A program made the position numbers and the translations under genes. The notes under the pieces were generated by a model. The model did not search any database and was not told where the DNA came from. It was given only the letters and a program-made list of their open reading frames with translations. Positions 899-10,401 of a DNA stretch of 10,461 nt are shown in pieces. This stretch comes from a virus (Duplodnaviria > Heunggongvirae > Uroviricota > Caudoviricetes): the IMG/VR virus record IMGVR_UViG_2526164651_000009; one strand, given 5' to 3'. Within the stretch, counting starts at the first letter, position 1. Every line of letters starts with the position of its first letter.

Positions 899-986
899 TT
901 TCCCCTCACTGGATTATTAGTTTTGCTAATGACGATTTCTTAATGTGGGACACCTGCCGATTTTTTTTCATAGTAAGCAAAAATAG

Positions 987-1246
987 TGTTGTCTCTGTTG
1001 TCTTTGTTGTCTCACGGCTCTACAGGCCGCGCCACGTCTGGGTTTTGCTGAGACAACATTTGCAATTTCGTGTTGTCTCACCCGGCATAAATGTTGTCTC
1101 ACTGCCTGCCAGACTAAAAACACACTTTCGCCCTGTTGTCTCAAAATGGCTAAATGTTGTCTCGGTGTTGTCTCAGAAATTAAAATAAAATCCTTATAAA
1201 TCAATCTCAATTACAAATTGAGACAACAAAGACAACCGAGACAACA
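987..1246. repeat. Iteron array, probable replication origin: about 12 copies of the 9-mer TGTTGTCTC in both orientations plus an AT-rich tract
   Basis: Direct copies at 987-995, 996-1004 (TGTTGTCTT variant), 1005-1013, 1071-1079, 1092-1100, 1134-1142, 1155-1163 and 1166-1174. Inverted copies (GAGACAACA) at 1050-1058, 1220-1228 and 1238-1246, with a degenerate one at 1229-1237. Several direct copies are spaced 21 or 42 bp apart. An AT-rich tract lies at about 1175-1219. The array sits immediately downstream of the primase-helicase gene. Confidence 0.8.
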
Positions 1247-1271
1247 CTAAAACTACGCATGTGAAGAAATA

Positions 1272-4031
1272 TTATTTTTCTGGCTGGCTGCTTTCCTCCG
1301 CCATGAAATTGAGTACATAGACGCGAATCTGTCGCCCATCCTCCCTTACTCGCCCCTGATAGCCTCGCCCGCTCGTTGGTGGTGTAAGCATTCCTGCATT
1401 CTTTAGAACTTCGGCAAACTGTTTGGTATTGAAGCCCTTTGCAATCTCCTGCTCAAACGCTGCCGGGAAGGTGTAGAAAATTATCGGGTCGCCGTCGTGG
1501 TTCCCCTTCTTCCTGTACCCGGCTAAATCACGGATGGGTAAATCGCGCGGGTCATAACCCAGCGGCGCGAATCGACTCAGCCCATAGGCATTCAAAAACG
1601 CCTCCGTCTGCTCAATAATCTGCTGGTGCTCTTTGTTCCCCGTGCCGAACTCACGCAACCACGCATTGTAGCTGTGCTGTATCGCATCACGGCACGTTTG
1701 ATCATCCCAGCCAGTAACCACGCCACCCAGCAGTAAAGCAGCCTCCAGAATGGCGAACCTTGCCCCTACACGGTGAACCTGTTCCCCATAGTCGGCAGGA
1801 ATAAGACTGCGCCAGCGAGCTTCACAGTCACGAACGGTATCAATGGCCTGCTGCTGGTGGCCTGCAAGCCATCTGATCCACTCCCGCCCGGCAGCGCCGT
1901 GATTGCTCTGCCACGCGGATTTTAATGCGTCTGCATGGTCTTTCCCTGTCTGGTGCTCATGAAAGCGCACCGCCTTACTTAACGGGATATTCAGCAGGCG
2001 CACCAGTTGCCCCGCTTTTGTCTTGCGTCCTGCGGTGGCAATGAACGTTTCTAAATCCATTTCCCCGGTGCTGATTGCCACGGTACGCCAGCGTTTTAGA
2101 TCCCGGTTTCCGCCTTCTTTCGCGCCCTGCAATTTCCCCACGCCGTTAAACAGGGCATAGGCAGACTGAGAAACGCTTATCGGGTCTGCGCCCTGTCCGA
2201 CTTCATCCAGCGGCATCAGTCCGTCATTGTGGGCGGCGGCCTCGTTTATCAGCCCCAGCGCCGTCCCGTACCACGTCAGGCGCAAGGCATCAGGGTTCCC
2301 GTATAGACTGCTAGCCACGTTCTGCGTGGTTGTTTTCCCGGCGCTCGATTGCTCATAAAAATGAATCCCGAATCCGTCACGCTCTGCCACCCCGATTAAT
2401 GGCGCTGCCAGTGCTGCGGCAATGCCTGTCATCATCGCGTAGTTGCCGTATGCCAGCCGCGCGACACTGTTGCGCCAGCTTTCCGGCGTTCCTGCTACGG
2501 TATACCCGGCAGCGGCTGAACTGCGCCCGCTGAACAAAACAGGCCGCTCAGGTGTGCCGATGATTTCCCCGTCCGGCATGATGTATGCCCCGCACTGCCA
2601 GCCTGTAGCATGAGCAACGCGCCACAATTCACGCGAGCCGCTCCGCTGTAGCCAGTCGGCAAGGATCGCCCGTAAACTGCTTTTGGTCGTGACGTTAACC
2701 CCACCAGCTTTCAGGGTGCGCCAGCCTTCACGCTCGCCAATATCAGCCAGCGGGATAGCCGCTGTTGTCGGTATGCCTGCACCGAATGCCAGCCATGAGA
2801 TAATAAGATACTGATCTTTGTCGTCGCGTCCCGTGCCGATAACCTCCAACGGGGAACATAACCAGCTTTCAGCGTTGACGATCTCCCCGCTTTCCTTGTC
2901 CACCTTCGGCGTTACCCAGAAAACGCCATCTTTGCGGCTCTCAATGTGGGGTTTTAGTGGATCTTTCTCTGGATGGTCAGTTTTACCGCCCTCAATGGCT
3001 TGCAATCGCGGTTTCACGGCTTCCCCTTGAATCTGGTACATCGAATCGTTAAACGCAGCCGTAGCGACTTCCAGCCCGTTTTGCTGGCGGTAGTCGTCCC
3101 AGTCGGCTTTGTAGTCTGTCGGCGGCAGCGCCACCCAGCCAGCCACGGATAAGGCGGCTTTCTCTGCGGCATCTTTGCCCGTGTTCGCCTGGTCGTCCTG
3201 CTGGTGGTCGTTATCTGCGGCAATGATAATTTGCGACTGCGGGTGTTTCCGGCGCATTACTCCGGCAACGTGGATCAGGTTCCCGGCGTCAATTGCCGCC
3301 ACTGTAAGCGCGTCCGGGCGCATCAGGTGGACTGATAAAGTGGTTGCCAGCCCCTCGGCAATAATCACCGCCTGCGGCTGTTCCGGTGCGTTAACGGCGT
3401 GATATGCCCCGCGCTTTGCTGAACCTGTCAGGAGTCGCTTCTCTCCCTGCGGTGTAATGGTTTGCGCTGCTGCCACTGCGCCGGATTCGTCCACCAGCTC
3501 CAGCAATAACGAACCATCCGGCATTACCGGATATTTAAACCCGGTCAGCCCTTTTGATTGCAGGTAATCAGATTCTCCCTGTGTGGCACTCTGGCGCATT
3601 CCGGCATACAGACGGGCAAACGTAGCCCTTCGCTGCTCTGCATCCTCTGCTGCCTGTTTCTGGCGCTCCTGCTCACGCTGCTGGCGGTCAGCTTCCAGTT
3701 GCTCTCTTCTATGGCTCGCTGCCACCGGGTCGGTTTCCGCTGCCCGGTAATCAATACCCAGCACGTCAGCGGCAAGCTGTGCCGCCTCCGTAGTGTCGCA
3801 GTTGTTAACCCGCTTGATTAAATCCAGCCCGTCACCAGCGCCACACTGGTTGCAGATAAAGCTACCGCGCCCGTTGTCGTCGAATCTGAAACGGTCTTTT
3901 CCACCACATGCAGGGCATGGAGAATGGCGGCGCGATGAATCAGGCACGTCGATAGACAATCCAGCCAGCACATAAGGCCAGCGCCCGGCGGCGGCACTGG
4001 TCACTTCGCGGATAAGGTCGATATTACGCAT
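1272..4031 (-). CDS. Primase-helicase replication protein (N-terminal zinc ribbon, TOPRIM domain, C-terminal P-loop NTPase), 919 aa
   Basis: ATG at 4031-4029 with AGGGGG about 6 nt upstream. Zinc-ribbon motif CPACGG...FICNQCG near the N-terminus; TOPRIM-like IIAEG and IIIAADNDHQQDD (DxD); Walker A-like EQSSAGKTT and Walker B-like LMPLDEVG in the C-terminal half. The start overlaps the stop of the upstream gene in the 8-nt sequence ATGCGTAA. Confidence 0.85.
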   Translation of the reverse strand: MRNIDLIREVTSAAAGRWPYVLAGLSIDVPDSSRRHSPCPACGGKDRFRFDDNGRGSFICNQCGAGDGLDLIKRVNNCDTTEAAQLAADVLGIDYRAAETDPVAASHRREQLEADRQQREQERQKQAAEDAEQRRATFARLYAGMRQSATQGESDYLQSKGLTGFKYPVMPDGSLLLELVDESGAVAAAQTITPQGEKRLLTGSAKRGAYHAVNAPEQPQAVIIAEGLATTLSVHLMRPDALTVAAIDAGNLIHVAGVMRRKHPQSQIIIAADNDHQQDDQANTGKDAAEKAALSVAGWVALPPTDYKADWDDYRQQNGLEVATAAFNDSMYQIQGEAVKPRLQAIEGGKTDHPEKDPLKPHIESRKDGVFWVTPKVDKESGEIVNAESWLCSPLEVIGTGRDDKDQYLIISWLAFGAGIPTTAAIPLADIGEREGWRTLKAGGVNVTTKSSLRAILADWLQRSGSRELWRVAHATGWQCGAYIMPDGEIIGTPERPVLFSGRSSAAAGYTVAGTPESWRNSVARLAYGNYAMMTGIAAALAAPLIGVAERDGFGIHFYEQSSAGKTTTQNVASSLYGNPDALRLTWYGTALGLINEAAAHNDGLMPLDEVGQGADPISVSQSAYALFNGVGKLQGAKEGGNRDLKRWRTVAISTGEMDLETFIATAGRKTKAGQLVRLLNIPLSKAVRFHEHQTGKDHADALKSAWQSNHGAAGREWIRWLAGHQQQAIDTVRDCEARWRSLIPADYGEQVHRVGARFAILEAALLLGGVVTGWDDQTCRDAIQHSYNAWLREFGTGNKEHQQIIEQTEAFLNAYGLSRFAPLGYDPRDLPIRDLAGYRKKGNHDGDPIIFYTFPAAFEQEIAKGFNTKQFAEVLKNAGMLTPPTSGRGYQGRVREDGRQIRVYVLNFMAEESSQPEK

Positions 4032-4365
4032 GGTTGCCCCCTGCCACGGTCGCGCCCATGTCTTTAACCATGCTTTGCCATATCTCGCGCCCGACGTCAG
4101 TCAATCCGTCCTTAGTGACGCAACGCTCAAGAAGCTCGACCCCCACGGTTTCCCACTGCGGGTAGGATACTTTCATGGCTGCCAGTGTGTAGCTATCGAT
4201 CAGGCTGCGAACGCCTTTTACTCCATTGACGATTTCCACACGGACGGCGAGGCCGTCCGCATCAACCATGAAATAGTCCCCGCCGCTGGTGGAGGTAATG
4301 TGGTTATACAGTGCCGATGCATACTTATTCGCCAGCGCATTCAGTCGGAAATTTTTAGTAATCAT
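4024..4365 (-). CDS. Hypothetical protein, 113 aa
   Basis: ATG at 4365-4363 preceded by GAGGGGG. The stop overlaps the primase start (ATGCGTAA). No recognisable motifs. Confidence 0.65.
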   Translation of the reverse strand: MITKNFRLNALANKYASALYNHITSTSGGDYFMVDADGLAVRVEIVNGVKGVRSLIDSYTLAAMKVSYPQWETVGVELLERCVTKDGLTDVGREIWQSMVKDMGATVAGGNHA

Positions 4366-4374
4366 GTCACCCCC

Positions 4375-5001
4375 TCAGTGCGCCAGCGGCATTTCAGGCC
4401 AGCCGTTTTCATCCAGTTCAGCTATAAAGCTGTTGTGAAGTTCAGCAAGCGTTTCACGCCCGAACGGGGTCAACTCGCCGCGCTCCGTGTCGATCATGGC
4501 CTGATAAAAAACAATGGCGTTCGCTGTTCCCTGCTCAATGCCGTAGCGCTCAACCATTGCGCCCTCCATGTTGTTAGCCATCGCCAGACGTTCCGCGAAC
4601 GGGTAAACCACAATCCCCGCCGTGCCATTGGAGTAAATCGCCACCTGCGATGAAGTGTCGTCAGACTCAGTTACCGTGGTTGTGCCGTTTTCGCGCTTCA
4701 TCTCAGAAATGAACGTCGCAGCAATCAGCCAGCGCCACATAGTGACGTTATGCTGCGCGGTGAAGTCGAACCAGCCACGCGCCCCGTCATCAGCAACGGC
4801 AAAATGAATGGCGTATCCGATATCTGGCTTATCGTCGTACTCTCCGGCGTCAAGGCCGTTCACGGCGCTCTCGTAGCTGATAAGAGCAACCTGCTCATAT
4901 CCCCCGGCATCATTGCGGGTCATGATATTGACGCCGTGCGGTGTGGCTTCGGCGTGTAATAAGTCGGCATTTCCCGATTTAATGGTCGGTGCGTTGCTCA
5001 T
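4375..5001 (-). CDS. Hypothetical protein, 208 aa
   Basis: ATG at 5001-4999 preceded by GGAGGG about 7 nt upstream. The start overlaps the stop of the upstream gene in ATGA. No recognisable motifs. Confidence 0.7.
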   Translation of the reverse strand: MSNAPTIKSGNADLLHAEATPHGVNIMTRNDAGGYEQVALISYESAVNGLDAGEYDDKPDIGYAIHFAVADDGARGWFDFTAQHNVTMWRWLIAATFISEMKRENGTTTVTESDDTSSQVAIYSNGTAGIVVYPFAERLAMANNMEGAMVERYGIEQGTANAIVFYQAMIDTERGELTPFGRETLAELHNSFIAELDENGWPEMPLAH

Positions 5002-5261
5002 GCGCTGCCCTCCGCATCAATTCTGGCTATATCGACAATCATCAGGACTTTACTCAGCCAGCAATACGCGATGGCTGCTTGCTCAACTTCGAGGAGTGGT
5101 AATAAATCGGTCATAACGTGAGCCAGCCCATTGCGGGCGCGGGTCATGCGTTCTGCTGTTCGGTCTGCCAGCGTAAAATCATCCGGGCATGCTTCTTTAC
5201 GAGATAGCATCGATTCGGCTTCCAGATCTGCCGGGTGGCGATAGATGGTATTTATGTTCAT
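4998..5261 (-). CDS. Hypothetical protein, 87 aa
   Basis: ATG at 5261-5259 preceded by AGGGAGGG. ATGA overlap with the upstream gene stop and again with the downstream gene start. Confidence 0.6.
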   Translation of the reverse strand: MNINTIYRHPADLEAESMLSRKEACPDDFTLADRTAERMTRARNGLAHVMTDLLPLLEVEQAAIAYCWLSKVLMIVDIARIDAEGSA

Positions 5262-5572
5262 TTGCCCGCCCTCCCTTTGGCTTCTTTTTCACTGATTGAG
5301 CGCAAGAATGCGGCGTTTGCAGCGCTATCGTTCAGCGCCCGCGCAACTTCTCCGATATGTCCCAGCATTGCGCCTAATCTGTACATATCAGCCTTAGCGC
5401 TTTCCTCCGGGTAGCCATCGCTACCAGCCGCCCAGAACATGAGGCTACCAATGGCACTTACGCCCAGCATTAAATCATCCACGGCATCACTGGCGCGGCT
5501 CTCAATTCCGTTCAGATCATCAGGTGTACAACCATCAAATTTGCAGGACACTAAATCGTCATACATGCTCAT
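5258..5572 (-). CDS. Hypothetical acidic protein, 104 aa
   Basis: ATG at 5572-5570 preceded by GAGGTGG. ATGA overlaps at both ends. Confidence 0.6.
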   Translation of the reverse strand: MSMYDDLVSCKFDGCTPDDLNGIESRASDAVDDLMLGVSAIGSLMFWAAGSDGYPEESAKADMYRLGAMLGHIGEVARALNDSAANAAFLRSISEKEAKGRAGK

Positions 5573-5748
5573 GCCGCCACCTCACGAACGCGGGTAATCT
5601 GGATGTGGGAAAGGCGTTCATTTCTGGCCTGATTTAGCGCCTCAGCTTTGGCGCTGATCGCGCTGCGGGCGTCAACGATATAAACGAACTCGACTAATTC
5701 GCCGCTCTGGGCGGTGGCGCATCCTGCAACACGGAAGTAATTAAGCAT
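5569..5748 (-). CDS. Hypothetical small protein, 59 aa
   Basis: Preferred start is the ATG at 5748-5746 with AGGGGG about 6 nt upstream; the track start at 5778 is a TTG and would overlap the Icd-like gene by 38 nt. The start overlaps the Icd-like stop in ATGCTTAA. Confidence 0.5.
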   Translation of the reverse strand: MLNYFRVAGCATAQSGELVEFVYIVDARSAISAKAEALNQARNERLSHIQITRVREVAA

Positions 5749-5932
5749 GTGCGCCCCCTGTGCGAATACGTCCGGCAAAAAAGCAAACGTGATCCCGCGC
5801 CAGAATGCGGCGGGCTTCCTGCTCAGTCTCTGCGGCGATATGGTGAATTTTGGCGGTAATTGTCGGCATATCGCGGCGAACTGCTGCGATAATCCAGATA
5901 AATTGCGGTTTTTGGGTAGGGGTAGTAGCCAT
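5741..5932 (-). CDS. Icd-like small protein (host cell-division inhibitor Icd family, tentative), 63 aa
   Basis: C-terminal 63 codons of track ORF 5741..6493. ATG at 5932-5930 is preceded by a strong SD, AAGGAGG, 8 nt upstream; the longer ORF has no such signal and contains a terminator-like hairpin. The family name is from recalled resemblance to Icd-like proteins of P4-like prophages, not from a search. Confidence 0.6.
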   Translation of the reverse strand: MATTPTQKPQFIWIIAAVRRDMPTITAKIHHIAAETEQEARRILARDHVCFFAGRIRTGGAHA

Positions 5933-5940
5933 TATGGCAG

Positions 5941-6035
5941 CCTCCTTTGTGTTTAAGGAGTCACCGCCTGACGTCTCAATGTCATGATTGGCGGTGACGT
6001 CAGCGGGGTTGAGACTACCGGACACAAAGGAAACC
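5941..6035 (-). ncRNA. Candidate C4-type antisense RNA or structured regulatory leader upstream of the Icd-like gene
   Basis: A perfect 10-nt inverted repeat: 6022-6031 (ACACAAAGGA on plus) is the reverse complement of 5943-5952 (TCCTTTGTGT), and the latter covers most of the SD of the Icd-like gene. Between them is a 9-bp stem (5960-5968 GTCACCGCC with 5990-5998 GGCGGTGAC). A local 6-bp hairpin (5942-5947 with 5955-5960) also includes the SD. Exact RNA ends cannot be determined from sequence. Confidence 0.3.
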
Positions 6036-6121
6036 GGCCTATCCGAAGATAGCCCCACTGACGCCACCATAGATACAGTACGGGCAAGGCCGCTGATTTG
6101 ATGTGCGTGGTGATCGGACAC

Positions 6122-6144
6122 AAAAAAAGACGCTTTCGGCGTCT
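6122..6144 (-). terminator. Candidate rho-independent terminator for the upstream alpA-side operon
   Basis: On the minus strand: stem AGACGC, loop CGAAA, stem GCGUCU, followed by six U (plus-strand A-run at 6122-6127). The stem is short (6 bp) but GC-rich. Confidence 0.35.
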
Positions 6145-6282
6145 GTGTCGCCCTTAGTGTGTTCGGGGTCTCAATCCCGGTTGCTGATTTTGCAGCAACG
6201 CTTGGACTATAACAGCTTTTCTCTGCTAGGTGGTCATACCAGATAAAACCGTAACCCTTTAAGAGTTTTCCCTGTGCACGGC

Positions 6283-6435
6283 TCACCATCTTTTTGTTGA
6301 GGGTAAGCGCCTCGCGTACTGGTAACGGAACTCCGGGCGCTGCGGTATCAATATCAGGTTTTGTAAGGTTGCAGATGTCAACTTTTGACAACATGCCAGC
6401 CAGATTAAAGGCTTCTTTCTGGGCGGCAGGTTCAT
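6283..6435 (-). CDS. Possible small basic ORF, 50 aa (MNLPPRKKPLIWLACCQK...), uncertain
   Basis: ATG at 6435-6433 overlaps the TGA of the upstream DUF4222-like gene (ATGA coupling); TGA at 6285-6283. No independent SD and the composition is unusual. Not in the supplied track because it is under 60 aa. Confidence 0.15.
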   Translation of the reverse strand: MNLPPRKKPLIWLACCQKLTSATLQNLILIPQRPEFRYQYARRLPSTKRW

Positions 6436-6614
6436 TCAGTATCACGGCGCACCTCCACGAACTCATTAACGAATCTCTCCAAAGGCTGAACACATGGCGA
6501 CTGATAGCCCTCGCGGTAAAAGGTCACTCGGTTATGCTCGACGCGCTGTACGGTCACTACAGCCCCGTGACTGTCCTTGTAACGGCTTCCCGGCATCGGA
6601 TTATGGTTACGCAT
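6432..6614 (-). CDS. Small protein, DUF4222-like (tentative), 60 aa
   Basis: ATG at 6614-6612 with GGAGG about 7 nt upstream. The start overlaps the upstream stop in ATGCGTAA. The sequence pattern (GAVVTVQRV...VTFYREGYQSPCVQPLERF) resembles small DUF4222 proteins of P4-like prophages, from recall only. Confidence 0.55.
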   Translation of the reverse strand: MRNHNPMPGSRYKDSHGAVVTVQRVEHNRVTFYREGYQSPCVQPLERFVNEFVEVRRDTE

Positions 6615-7440
6615 GGTTTACCTCCAGACGCTTAGCGAGCCAGCGTTGCGACAGGCGGGTGAGTTCTCCTTTGCGCTGCTCATATTCCATGCCCATATCA
6701 ATTAACGTGATATTGGTGCTTTCGAGATAGGCGAGGTGTTCAAGCTGTGCTGCGTTCATGCTGTCCCGTGGTTCGCCAGTAATGCCATTTGCCTGCGCCC
6801 ACTGCTTCGCCGTCATGCCACCCAGCACGATACGGGCGATCATGTTGCTCTCGTTGCTGTAGTGGCGCTGCTGCGTCGTTTTACCCAGCTCGGCACGGGC
6901 CATATTCAGCGCATCGCACATTGGCTTAAAATTGTTTGCGGCACTGATACGGGCTTTTAGCTGGCGACGATAGCGGGCGGCGATTTCAGGCACGCTACGC
7001 TGTAATTCTTCCTCGCACTGGATGAAATAACGGCGGATAGCGCGGCCCTGTTCGGTGCGTTCGACCATCGCCAGTTCTTTCGCCATTCCGACACTTAACA
7101 GATAGTCTTTGCCGGGTCTGCCAGACTGTTTAATCTTGCTGTAAGCCACGCCATTCGGGCTTTTCCCCAGATTTGGGGAAATTGTTTTATGGACTGAGTA
7201 ATCGTGCCCAATGGTGAAGTCATATTCAGAGATGCGATCAGTGATCCATGTAGAGAAGTCTTTTCCCACGCCCAACGCTTTGTGTAACGCTTTGGCGCTA
7301 ACAATATTGGTTTCACGCCCACCGATATGACCAGGAATAACCGGGACAATTGTGGCAAATTCATTACCGTTAATTGTGCCCTGATAGGCGTTCAGATGAG
7401 GGGCGGCCTCAGAAATTAATCTGCTTTTTTCGATGTTCAT
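6607..7440 (-). CDS. Phage antirepressor-like regulatory protein (AntA-type N-terminal domain, tentative), 277 aa
   Basis: ATG at 7440-7438 with GGAG about 8 nt upstream. N-terminal region SAKALHKALGVGKDFSTWITDRI resembles the AntA/ORF6N-type antirepressor signature (F-S/N-D/T-W-I..RI). The C-terminal half is unassigned. Confidence 0.5.
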   Translation of the reverse strand: MNIEKSRLISEAAPHLNAYQGTINGNEFATIVPVIPGHIGGRETNIVSAKALHKALGVGKDFSTWITDRISEYDFTIGHDYSVHKTISPNLGKSPNGVAYSKIKQSGRPGKDYLLSVGMAKELAMVERTEQGRAIRRYFIQCEEELQRSVPEIAARYRRQLKARISAANNFKPMCDALNMARAELGKTTQQRHYSNESNMIARIVLGGMTAKQWAQANGITGEPRDSMNAAQLEHLAYLESTNITLIDMGMEYEQRKGELTRLSQRWLAKRLEVNHA

Positions 7441-8194: not shown

Positions 8195-9046
8195 TTATTG
8201 AAAATCTATCAATTTCAGAAAATCTGAAAACCTCATGTTTTTTATGTGGGGGTTATCTGCGTAGTATTTTTTTAATTCCACTCGACTAAGCACATCTCTC
8301 ACAGACTCTGCAAATGGTTTCACAGTGTCACGGATGTGAGCGCCACCCTTAACCGTTCCGTCAGGTAGTGGCTCAGGGAACAGTAGACGCGCATAAAGCT
8401 CATTGGACACCATAATGCCGTTAATCCTCGCCCATCTTGATATATCAAGATATGGGATTATCCGGTAATGATGGATCTTGGCAATTGTTGACGCCCCGAA
8501 CCTCTTTTTTTCTTTGACGGCACTTTCAGGTATACCGGTCTGAACCCTCCACCTTTTTAGCAATGTTTTAAATCCAGCTATCATTTCGTCATCGTCCATC
8601 AAATCAAGCCCGATATCGACAAATATCCCCGTTTTACCTTCTGACCTTGGATCATCGGTATCATATAGCATCGACTGGTTGTATATATCGCAATTTTCTA
8701 TGTCTGCTCTTGCTTCAATTCTGCCATTATCCGTTATCGTCATACGCCCATCACTCAGGCAGCTGTTAACAAAAGCGCAAATCATCGAAAAAGGTAGAGG
8801 CATAATTCCTCTGTCATCAAAGGATAGACTACCCTCCGGCAAATCCTCATCCCAGAGGGTAACATCCGTTATAAGGGGGAATGGAATAATTGAGAAAACC
8901 TCATCTTTTCGTAACTCAAGACTATCAGAGTGATAACTCATCATGAACATCTCGCTTACCACATGGTTGACACTTAGATCCAACACGTAGTCGTACCTGT
9001 CCAGTGAAAACCATTCCATCACATCGCCGTATTTAGCCCGTTTCAT
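8195..9046 (-). CDS. Hypothetical protein, 283 aa; AT-richer cargo gene between integrase and alpA, function unknown (candidate accessory or defence gene)
   Basis: ATG at 9046-9044 with AAGGTGG about 7 nt upstream; TAA at 8197-8195. The gene looks AT-richer than its neighbours (not computed). No Walker, HExxH or nuclease motif was recognised by eye. Confidence 0.75.
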   Translation of the reverse strand: MKRAKYGDVMEWFSLDRYDYVLDLSVNHVVSEMFMMSYHSDSLELRKDEVFSIIPFPLITDVTLWDEDLPEGSLSFDDRGIMPLPFSMICAFVNSCLSDGRMTITDNGRIEARADIENCDIYNQSMLYDTDDPRSEGKTGIFVDIGLDLMDDDEMIAGFKTLLKRWRVQTGIPESAVKEKKRFGASTIAKIHHYRIIPYLDISRWARINGIMVSNELYARLLFPEPLPDGTVKGGAHIRDTVKPFAESVRDVLSRVELKKYYADNPHIKNMRFSDFLKLIDFQ

Positions 9047-9141
9047 AACGCCACCTTTTACGCTGCGCCTTATTTTGTGATTGAGCCAGGCGGTAAGGCT
9101 TCCCGCTTTTCGCCCCGTCGGGCTAGACTCAATCTATTCAG

Positions 9142-10401
9142 TTAGTTCGCCCTTCTGAGAGGCGTCACGTTGTAATCTTCGCCCTTCTCCAGAGCCACCA
9201 GCAAGCCCGCCCACTGTGTTAACGCAGCCCGTCGCTCGTCAAAGTATTGGTGACGGTTATAAATCCCCTCTACGCCCTTAATGCGATGATTGAGGCATCG
9301 TTCCGCCACTACCGGATCAACGCCCAGCGCTGCTAAATGGGTGCGGGCCGTGCGTCGGAAGTCGTGAATCGTGAAATTAGGCACATCCGGTATTTCGGCG
9401 CGAACCTTAGCCAGTGCTACGGGCAGGGTGCTTTCCTGAATATGGGGGATCATGCGGTTTTGCATCTTTCTGGCTGGCAGTACCCATGCGCTGTTGCATG
9501 AGAACGTTTTAAGCTCTCTCAGCCATTCGACGGCTGGGGAAGGTAGAGGTATATCAATAGGGTCTCCGTTTTTGCTGCGTTCTTCCGGCAAATGCCATAC
9601 CGCACCATCTAAATCAAACTCTTCCCATCGTGCGGCGCATAATTCCATTTTGCGGACGCATAACGCTAACAGTAATTTGAACGTGATTTCGTTCTGGCGA
9701 CTGAATCCCTTAGCCGTGCGCATGGCTTTGAATAGCTGGATTAACTCATCGCGGGTTAACCAGCGGTCACGGGCAACTTCTTTCCCTCCGGCGTCTGCCA
9801 CCTCAAAGGCTGAACAGGGGTTAATCTCTAGCGCGTGCCGTTTGATTCCGTAGTCGAATATGCGGCGCGTCCATCTCAGCACGTCCGTTGCTATGGTCGA
9901 CGCTCCACGGTCAACAATACCTTTCAGCATGTCATCGATATGGCGCGGTTTCACGTCCTCTACCTTCATGCTGCCAATGCAGGGGTTTATATCTTTGTCG
10001 ATACGGCGGCGGAGTATATCGGGGTGCTTCCAGCGCGGGAGGATCTGACGCTCAAAGTATTCAGCGGCAAGCTCTGAAACGCGCATAGCGTTCTTCTCTG
10101 CTTCCATCTTCGCCAGTGCTTCGGTTTTGCGCTTCTGCTTCTCTCCTGCAACGTCATAGCCCAGCGCAACGCGAGCCGATAGCTCTTTGGCTGTCTCTCT
10201 GGCCTTTGATAGTGATAGCTCGCTATACGAACCAATTAGCATGGCGCGGGACTTCCCTGCGAGTTTATAGCGGAATCTCCATGTGGGGGTTTTGTCGGCT
10301 TCACGGTAACGTAGGTATAAACCGTTACCGTCTGCCCGCCCCTCGAATCGCTCTCCGCTCTTAATCCATGCGCGGATCTGCATGTCTGTTAGTTTTGGCA
10401 T
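9142..10401 (-). CDS. int: P4-type tyrosine integrase (site-specific recombinase), about 419 aa
   Basis: Preferred start is the ATG at 10401-10399 (MPKLTDMQIRA..., matching the usual P4-type integrase N-terminus); the ORF remains open to the window edge at 10461. The C-terminal catalytic region carries HDFRRT and the active-site tyrosine context GIYNRHQY. Confidence 0.9.
   Translation of the reverse strand: MPKLTDMQIRAWIKSGERFEGRADGNGLYLRYREADKTPTWRFRYKLAGKSRAMLIGSYSELSLSKARETAKELSARVALGYDVAGEKQKRKTEALAKMEAEKNAMRVSELAAEYFERQILPRWKHPDILRRRIDKDINPCIGSMKVEDVKPRHIDDMLKGIVDRGASTIATDVLRWTRRIFDYGIKRHALEINPCSAFEVADAGGKEVARDRWLTRDELIQLFKAMRTAKGFSRQNEITFKLLLALCVRKMELCAARWEEFDLDGAVWHLPEERSKNGDPIDIPLPSPAVEWLRELKTFSCNSAWVLPARKMQNRMIPHIQESTLPVALAKVRAEIPDVPNFTIHDFRRTARTHLAALGVDPVVAERCLNHRIKGVEGIYNRHQYFDERRAALTQWAGLLVALEKGEDYNVTPLRRAN

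Follow-up and report, generated by a model that had tools for sequence, protein, structure and literature searches.

A C4/CI-type antisense RNA leader precedes the Icd/Kil-like gene and primase-helicase operon of a P4/PICI-type satellite island

The DNA analyzed here is a 10,461-nucleotide stretch of the IMG/VR virus record IMGVR_UViG_2526164651_000009 (Caudoviricetes), and this whole stretch is referred to below as the window. It carries an island with genes for an integrase, a DUF6387 protein, AlpA, an AntA-family protein, a DUF4222 protein, a primase and SSB, together with the immunity RNAs that are the subject of this analysis. The first gene after the leader, at 5741–5932 on the minus strand, encodes an Icd/Kil-like protein of 63 amino acids that matched the NCBIfam family NF033153 'Icd-like' with 73.5 bits. 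The Kil protein of satellite P4 scored 73.9 bits against the same family, and the two proteins shared 41% identity in BLASTP (E = 1e-9). Downstream, and also on the minus strand, an operon with overlapping starts and stops (1272–5748) comprises five small genes of 59, 104, 87, 208 and 113 amino acids and a 919-amino acid primase-helicase with Zn_Ribbon_Prim, Toprim_3 and DUF927 domains, which PGAP labels 'phage/plasmid primase, P4 family' in E. coli. A scan from 6122 to 1272 returned a single further minus-strand site, a weak match at 3533–3515 inside the primase gene. Neither the window nor the 18.8-kb E. coli locus L001 contained sid, delta or psu, so that the element falls outside the strict SatelliteFinder definition of a P4-like satellite; its int-alpA-primase layout is that of a Gram-negative PICI rather than of P4 proper. 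No antirepressor gene was found downstream of the Icd-like gene, and the AntA-family gene (6607–7440) sits upstream of the leader promoter.

Every relevant feature of the leader is carried by the minus strand. An earlier sequence-only reading of this DNA had proposed a C4-type antisense leader in front of the Icd-like gene and a scan with the Rfam C4 model as a check, and the scan returned a match to the C4 antisense RNA family RF01695 at 5987–6074(-), with 82.1 bits against a gathering threshold of 45 (E = 2e-15). The match is full length, covering model positions 1–87 of 87. In the window as a whole, four Rfam matches exceeded gathering: C4, isrK, c4-a1b1, and an int-alpA motif at 9067–9133 that is unrelated to the leader. 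The c4 RNA of P1/P7 and the CI RNA of P4 both belong to RF01695. When the 88-nt C4 RNA was folded in isolation, its minimum free energy structure was the Rfam consensus (-44.2 kcal/mol, z = -6.0), in which a long stem closes the structure around a tetraloop hairpin, another hairpin whose loop has about 12 nt, and a single-stranded junction. The three helices were paired in 100% of the cells of an alignment of 52 leaders, with compensatory changes in 12 of their 27 pairs. The closing stem is followed by CCA, as it is in P4 and in the relatives, which is at most an indirect hint that the RNA may be cut out of the transcript by RNase P. Two elements of this RNA are available for pairing. The 12-nt loop of the second hairpin, UUUCCUUUGUGU (6022–6033), is the b' element, and it includes the 10-nt element at 6022–6031 that had been noticed in the sequence-only reading. 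The a' element, GUCUCAA (6009–6015), lies in the single-stranded junction. Read in the RNA sense, the order of features is the -10 element, the transcription start, a hairpin, the a1 hairpin, b1, a terminator, a 47-nt spacer, C4, a2, b2 with the Shine-Dalgarno (SD) sequence, and the Icd-like gene.

The claim that a perfect 10-nt complement of the SD region lies about 70 nt upstream on the same transcript was borne out. The sequence UCCUUUGUGU (RNA 6031..6022) is perfectly complementary to ACACAAAGGA (RNA 5952..5943), and the arms are 69 nt apart. The downstream site, b2 (5943–5952), overlaps the SD sequence GGAGG (5945..5941), which is located 8 nt 5' of the ATG at 5932, so that b2 and the SD are fused into one element at 5941–5952. 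The whole 12-nt b' loop can pair across this element, forming 12 pairs, including two G-U pairs, and covering all of GGAGG. The predicted duplex has a free energy of -15.0 kcal/mol compared to -7.4 ± 1.9 for shuffled loops, of which 3 in 2000 were equally good. When 5941–6144 was subjected to 2000 dinucleotide shuffles, 24 of them contained some perfect inverted repeat of 10 nt or longer. Within the window, b2 is the unique target site of b'. The a' element has its own downstream target in a2, UUGAGAC (5973–5979), with 7/7 complementarity, and together a2 and b2 make up a two-part site, complementary to the C4 RNA and overlapping the first gene's ribosome-binding site. Two further copies of TTGAGAC, at 1138–1144 and 1218–1224, were considered as additional C4 targets and set aside as parts of origin-like iterons.

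The strongest evidence against chance complementarity is comparative, because pairing is kept through many different sequences in the relatives. We retrieved 80 IMG/VR loci with the Icd-like protein, and aligned 52 distinct leaders, P4 included. These leaders contained 21 b' loops and nine a' variants in 26 a'/b' combinations. The mean b'-b2 complementarity was 8.9 nt for cognate pairs and 4.0 nt for non-cognate pairs, while a' and a2 were complementary at 7/7 positions in all 52 leaders. Upstream, a1 follows a' across the relatives, and b1 follows b' in most leaders. Conserved complementarity and covariation in homologous elements had been suggested as a check on the original observation, and the b2 and a2 targets do co-vary with b' and a' across the 52 leaders. 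The fold of the leader co-varies as well: when C4 and three leader hairpins were considered together, 99.0% of cells were paired, with double changes in 20 of 45 pairs. This was matched in none of 500 shuffles, and slid controls were 35–48% paired; the shuffle statistics, like the Fisher test given below, overstate significance because related sequences are not phylogenetically independent. The combination of a' GUCUCAA with b' UCCUUUGUGU found in the window was unique among the 52 leaders, and it predicts the immunity specificity of the island.

The region upstream of C4 contains a second copy of the C4 target within a short RNA unit of its own. A TG-extended -10 element, TGtTATAGT (6206–6214), is the putative leader promoter, and its TATAGT is in register with the TATAGT located 5' of P4 seqA. 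A consensus sigma-70 promoter scan found no -35/-10 pair for the leader, and therefore only the extended -10 is proposed; the conserved -35 sequence GGGCTTGC, present in P4 and most relatives, is missing from the window. Transcription probably starts near 6199, the nucleotide at which position 1 of the isrK model falls. The c4-a1b1 motif RF03163 matched 6160–6212 with 52.8 bits (gathering 46.7), and its structure consists of a hairpin at 6199–6180 followed by a hairpin that holds a1 in its loop, both helices showing covariation. The isrK model RF01394 matched 6123–6199 with 71.1 bits (gathering 50) over model positions 1–77 of 77, and this unit has the two 5' hairpins and the Rho-independent terminator of that family, the terminator having also been found independently. 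It is the equivalent of the P4 seqA region and its terminator. Within it, a1 (UUGAGAC, 6168–6174) is complementary to a' at 7/7 positions, extending to 12 nt at 92%. The b1 element, ACACACUAAGGG (6151–6162), complements b' in an interrupted form of 5 + 4 pairs; b1 is thus degenerate in this element, compared to 8–9 nt of perfect complementarity in most relatives.

The intrinsic terminator at 6122–6144, GACGC-CGAAA-GCGUC followed by U7, had been taken in the sequence-only reading to define a separate transcription unit. We reject this interpretation, since the terminator belongs to the isrK/seqA match and sits inside the leader, with a1/b1 on one side and C4 on the other, both in P4 and in all relatives. 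At this position, 69 of 69 relatives have a hairpin together with a T-run. The location of the terminator between the promoter and C4 indicates that the output of C4 depends on read-through. The interval originally marked, 5941–6144, was too short, omitting a1/b1 and the leader promoter (6145–6214).

Between C4 and the Icd-like gene, a 9-bp helix (5960–5998, with arms at 5990–5998 and 5960–5968) presents a2 in its loop. This hairpin had been described as containing two GACGTC palindromes; both palindromes are present, at 5970–5975 and 5996–6001, and the helix is conserved, with 97.6% of cells paired and compensatory changes in 5 of 9 pairs, but the palindromes are not conserved, being confined to this element, and appear to be incidental. 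A role for GACGTC as a binding or restriction site was discounted, as the relatives keep the helix with CCACCACC/GGUGGUGG or with GCUAUCGCC/GGCGAUAGC, the latter being the form found in P4. The 5' arm of the helix comprises 7 nt from the outer end of the closing stem of C4, on its 3' strand, together with the CC that follows. Because they share strands, the 9-bp helix and the outermost part of the C4 stem are mutually exclusive, making this an alternative helix. At a guess, it could serve to present a2, or act as a switch linked to processing.

A long open reading frame runs through the entire leader and ends as the Icd-like gene (5741–6466, minus strand). This frame, which is also that of the Icd-like gene, stays open between 6493 and 5741, and its candidate starts are ATG 6466 (SD GGAGAG), GTG 6445 (SD GGAGG) and GTG 6493. 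The Pfam family Phage_ASH matched residues 95–195 of this eta-like ORF, corresponding to leader positions 6211..5909, and PGAP annotates a 234-amino acid 'Icd-like' CDS over the leader in E. coli, with no RNA annotated. From the transcription start to the ATG, the frame was stop-free in 68 of 69 relatives, and the other two frames contained 1–7 stops. A 50-amino acid ORF at 6283–6435 was not retained as a gene, as it has no SD and no family match, and is overlapped by the eta-like frame with its two good ribosome-binding sites. Substitutions in the Icd-like gene showed codon-3 periodicity (0.107/0.107/0.319 by codon position), whereas those in the leader did not (0.28/0.26/0.27 in C4), which led us to discard the leader as ordinary coding sequence. 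The long frame was in frame with icd in 27 of 71 loci, the window and P4 among them, and shifted in the other 44, where it passes icd in the +1 frame and terminates at the stop of the next gene. This +1 frame through icd was open in 44 of 44 shifted loci compared to 10 of 27 others (Fisher 8e-10, uncorrected for relatedness). A frame that is kept free of stops in this way would fit selection for the uninterrupted passage of ribosomes rather than for an amino acid sequence. The long ORF is probably translated, and its amino acid sequence is apparently not under selection.

Given the family membership, the fold, the co-varying complementarities, the homology to P4 kil/eta and the layout of the operon, we consider it highly probable that the leader serves a P4/PICI-type satellite island as its RNA immunity module, silencing the replication genes by pairing with the SD of the first gene. 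The way in which it would operate can be postulated from P1, P4 and Gifsy-1, on which we draw for the promoter, the processing, the action in trans, the part played by Rho and the translational override. A constitutive promoter near 6206–6214 would produce a leader transcript from about 6199, and many of these transcripts would end at the terminator 6144–6122, yielding an IsrK/seqA-type RNA of about 77 nt. Transcripts that read through may be processed into a stable C4-type RNA, as RNase P does in P1 and P4. The b' and a' elements of this RNA would pair with b2/a2 and b1/a1, either on the island's own transcripts or on incoming transcripts of the same specificity. Pairing with b2 would cover GGAGG and block translation of the Icd/Kil-like gene, and the untranslated, C-rich start of the gene could then be subject to Rho-dependent termination. 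A candidate Rho-utilization region is the C-rich, G-poor stretch at 5800–5960 on the minus strand (C/G ~2), and in the initial ~130 nt of the Icd-like gene C/G is ~2, the highest value in the scan, which is suggestive only. As a result, the five small genes and the primase-helicase would stay off, and the island would not replicate. The immunity could be overridden by transcripts started farther upstream, which would carry the eta-like ORF; ribosomes translating it would prevent the RNA structures and the termination, making expression insensitive to immunity. The proposal that the leader gates the replication genes was part of the original observation, and it agrees with what has been described for the homologous immunity region of P4 (PMC10111431, PMC4825925).

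Other explanations would assign the regulation to different parts of the leader. It is conceivable that the leader acts purely in cis, with b'/b2 and a'/a2 sequestering the SD on the same mRNA and no processed trans RNA involved. A single transcript does hold all of the elements, a1/b1 and a'/b' are paired with each other in cis in the minimum free energy structure predicted for the leader (291 nt), and the Gifsy-1 study demonstrated such cis helices in a homologous leader. We nevertheless regard this explanation as improbable, since the RNA scores highly over its full length against a family in which the representatives from P1 and P4 are trans-acting immunity factors, and the Gifsy-1 homologue gives a stable, processed species of about 80 nt. 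Furthermore, if selection favored trans specificity (heteroimmunity), diversification of the kind observed, into 26 a'/b' combinations each with its matching targets, would be expected. We judge it slightly more improbable still that the main regulator is the IsrK/seqA-type RNA (6199–6123), acting as a trans activator or decoy that binds C4, or the C4 segment within the long transcript, and turns on translation of the Icd-like gene and the operon. The isrK match of 71 bits and the full complementarity of a1 to a' are consistent with such a role, as is the finding that Gifsy-1 IsrK, provided in trans, raises downstream translation more than 100-fold. However, the degenerate b1 of this element would weaken a decoy, and the perfect complementarity of b' to b2/SD, the best-conserved interaction of all, would be left unexplained. 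Such an activity is also compatible with repression by C4, and would be an extra layer rather than a true alternative.

By far the least probable explanation, which we consider very unlikely, is that the region is simply protein-coding, producing the 234-amino acid Icd-like/Ash-family protein of the PGAP annotation, and that the complementarities are incidental. The frame that is open from 6493 to 5741, its Phage_ASH match, its freedom from stops in 68 of 69 relatives and the PGAP CDS itself would all be expected of a gene. In contrast, codon-3 periodicity is present in the Icd-like gene and absent across the leader, a strong SD and ATG mark an internal start, and the long frame is out of frame with icd in 44 of 71 relatives (P4 counted in the 71). 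Three RNA models above threshold, with helices and intermolecular sites that co-vary, also argue against incidental complementarity.

Much of this system is known. Rfam has included the C4 RNA family since the work of Weinberg et al. 2010, and the equivalence of C4/isrK with CI/seqA and the occurrence of these RNAs in PICIs have been published (PMC10111431), so that the present result correctly adds one more element to those in which this known system occurs. With C4/CI antisense immunity in P4 and PICIs being established, it would hold little surprise for a specialist. Its value lies mainly in annotation, as it identifies the switch that most likely holds the replication genes of the island off, in a region where the RNA leader is assigned by current pipelines to a 234-amino acid 'Icd-like' or 'Ash family' protein and no RNA is recorded. 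The sequence comparisons suggest some modest extensions, namely a stop-free but unconstrained frame in two configurations, a competing helix, and the breadth of the a'/b' repertoire. That these reflect, jointly, an override by ribosome passage, a two-part a'/b' address code and a competing helix serving as a processing or presentation switch is a possibility that we put forward tentatively, and it is somewhat more likely to fail than to hold in all its parts. If true, the P4 eta model would be broadened by the override to include 'translation without a selected protein', the Pfam family Phage_ASH would be largely the conceptual translation of an RNA, and the address code could allow numerous related satellites to coexist in one host with no cross-immunity between them.

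The sequence-only reading had likened the leader to the c4 system of P1/P7. This likeness holds with respect to the C4 family and the SD complement, but the nearest characterized relative is the CI RNA/seqA/seqC/kil-eta region of P4 and not the P1 c4-icd-ant operon, there being no antirepressor downstream. The immI region of P1/P7 and the window share the Rfam family, the a1 b1 - c4 - a2 b2 layout, the position of b2 at the icd ribosome-binding site, and a first gene of the Icd family. The leader is ~72% identical over 88% of its length to those of the P1-like phages RCS47 and D6. In P1, C4 reportedly blocks the translation of icd, leading to Rho-dependent polarity, a finding associated with Biere, Citron and Schuster in 1992. 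The precursors of both C4 and CI are said to be RNase P substrates, as Hartmann et al. and Forti et al. are each understood to have reported in 1995. The C4 RNA of P1/P7 controls an antirepressor (ant), whereas the window has replication genes in that place, and no C4-controlled ant follows its icd-like gene. P1 and P7 exist as plasmid prophages, and the window holds an integrated island with an integrase and AlpA. Full repression of icd-ant in P1 needs C4 (PMC8198154).

The isrK - orf45/STnc1160 - anrP region of Salmonella Gifsy-1 offers a second comparison, as the isrK model matches the a1/b1 leader of the window, terminator included, with 71 bits. In Gifsy-1, a transcript that reads through the terminator is processed to an RNA of about 80 nt downstream of IsrK, and an ORF spans that RNA; an ORF running through the RNA in the C4 position is thus common to Gifsy-1 and the window. 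The gene regulated in Gifsy-1 is an antirepressor, unlike that in the window, and the authors of the Gifsy-1 study did not treat STnc1160 as a C4 repressor. Because IsrK of Gifsy-1 is an activator of downstream translation and not a repressor, a1/b1 could have either net sign. Among the PICIs, Mageeney et al. 2023 found that the Rfam C4 and isrK models match CI/seqA relatives in several Gram-negative elements (PMC10111431). The 'Bro zone' arrangement of these elements corresponds to that of the window, with integrase and AlpA, a Bro/AntA-type zone with immunity RNAs, a primase and SSB; the element in the window and its a'/b' specificity are not described in that study (PMC10111431).

The closest correspondence is with P4. 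A scan of the P4 genome with the same models placed C4 at 8420–8507 (the CI RNA or seqB, 74.9 bits), isrK at 8615–8692 (60.8 bits) and c4-a1b1 at 8653–8705 (44.1 bits), in the same order and orientation as in the window. Both have the -10 TATAGT, the terminator after seqA and the a2-presenting helix, as well as a common junction, GGAGGCUGCCAU(A/C)AUGGCUAC, and a common GGAGGCUGCCAUCAUGGCUAC start. In P4, a constitutive promoter lies inside eta, and RNA interactions involving CI and seqA soon bring its transcript to an end; processing of this transcript yields the stable immunity RNA CI, and Kil is translated only upon occasional read-through. Full-length Eta is made exclusively from a late promoter located upstream, and termination is prevented by its translation (PMC10111431). 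The same picture of P4 has been drawn in a study that links IsrK to seqA (PMC4825925), and the Rho-dependent terminator timm has been mapped to X51522 8365–8209, in the kil coding region (PMC3177188). P4 Kil corresponds to the final 65 codons of the ORF formerly labeled 'cI gene product'. In both elements a long ORF, eta in the case of P4, begins upstream of the leader promoter and has the small gene as its 3' end, and in both the Phage_ASH match falls exactly on the portion of the ORF that coincides with the RNA leader. The primase gene, which in P4 belongs to the alpha operon, lies a few small genes downstream in both, although the intervening small genes are unrelated and the primase-helicase of the window, unlike that of P4, has a DUF927-type C-terminal part. 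The window also differs from P4 in lacking the conserved -35 and sid, delta and psu, and the spacer from terminator to C4 is 47 nt in the window compared to 107 nt in P4. The pairing elements have diverged in sequence while keeping their matches: the a' of P4 is UUCUCAC (GUCUCAA in the window), and GUGAGAA occurs both upstream and downstream of it; likewise, UUCACAGG occurs on either side of its b', CCUGUGAA, the P4 loop being UAUCCUGUGAAG compared to UUUCCUUUGUGU in the window. Predicted cross-duplexes between the window and P4 are weak, at about -6 to -7 kcal/mol compared to -14 to -15 for cognate duplexes, and the element in the window should therefore be heteroimmune to P4.

Both in the window (5909-6211, minus strand) and in satellite phage P4, the closest relative, the match to the Pfam family Phage_ASH (PF10554) covers exactly the protein sequence obtained by conceptually translating the RNA leader. 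Substitution analysis revealed no codon periodicity in the leader, and the Phage_ASH family may therefore be largely a reflection of RNA conservation. In the 18.8-kb E. coli locus L001, the PGAP annotation places a 234-aa 'Icd-like' CDS over the leader (9042-9746), without any RNA annotated. Comparison of the leader and first two genes among the related loci (L002-L081) demonstrated two configurations of the stop-free leader frame. It is in register with icd/kil in 27 loci, including P4, and shifted in 44 others, where it crosses icd in the +1 frame and ends at the stop of the next gene. This +1 frame through icd is open in all 44 of the shifted loci, compared to 10 of the 27 in-frame loci.

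The eta-like frame, named for the long P4 ORF through the leader, has two potential starts on the minus strand of the window, each with a good ribosome-binding site: an ATG at 6466 (GGAGAG, 8 nt spacing) and a GTG at 6445 (GGAGG, 6 nt spacing). Both lie within the end of the DUF4222 gene, and their position suggests that the frame is translationally coupled to that gene. The eta-like frame also overlaps a 50-aa ORF (6283-6435, minus strand), for which neither an SD nor a family match was found.

Most relatives carry a conserved AAAAAGGGCTTGC in the -35 region upstream of the leader. This element is missing from the window (6215-6260, minus strand), and P4 differs in retaining just GCTTGCC of the region. 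Just upstream of the -10, the window ceases to be homologous to its relatives, which points to a recombination joint at the leader promoter; a TG-extended -10 may compensate for the missing -35 region. In most relatives, the spacer between terminator and C4 also holds a TATAAT box (GGTTATAATCC; columns ~225-240 of the leader alignment), a possible second promoter serving C4 alone. The box is absent from window positions 6075-6121, and the spacer is 15 nt shorter, without the box, in both the window and the related locus L006.

Directly downstream of the primase-helicase gene, at window positions 984-1249, the iteron TGTTGTCTC(A) recurs about 13 times, in either orientation, and the array includes a 31-nt inverted repeat (97% complementary). 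It is a likely replication origin, and a mechanically called ORF overlapping it (968-1210) is probably spurious. The iteron and the a' element of C4 have GTCTCA in common, probably by coincidence. Elsewhere on the minus strand, an int-alpA RNA motif (Rfam RF02996; 9067-9133; 59.5 bits vs 35.8) is flanked by an integrase gene and a DUF6387 gene.

In one IMG/VR contig (L028, 1-120), unrelated sequence replaces the a1/b1 part of the leader, and the terminator, C4 and a2/b2 are still there; this may be a natural variant without the upstream target, or simply a contig end. Among phage records H21-H35, lambdoid and Stx phages also match the C4 half of the leader, adjoining Rha or antirepressor genes, as do the APSE phages of Hamiltonella; the APSE-7 record labels the matching region 'C4 antisense family sRNA' and notes a 'putative b' antisense region'.
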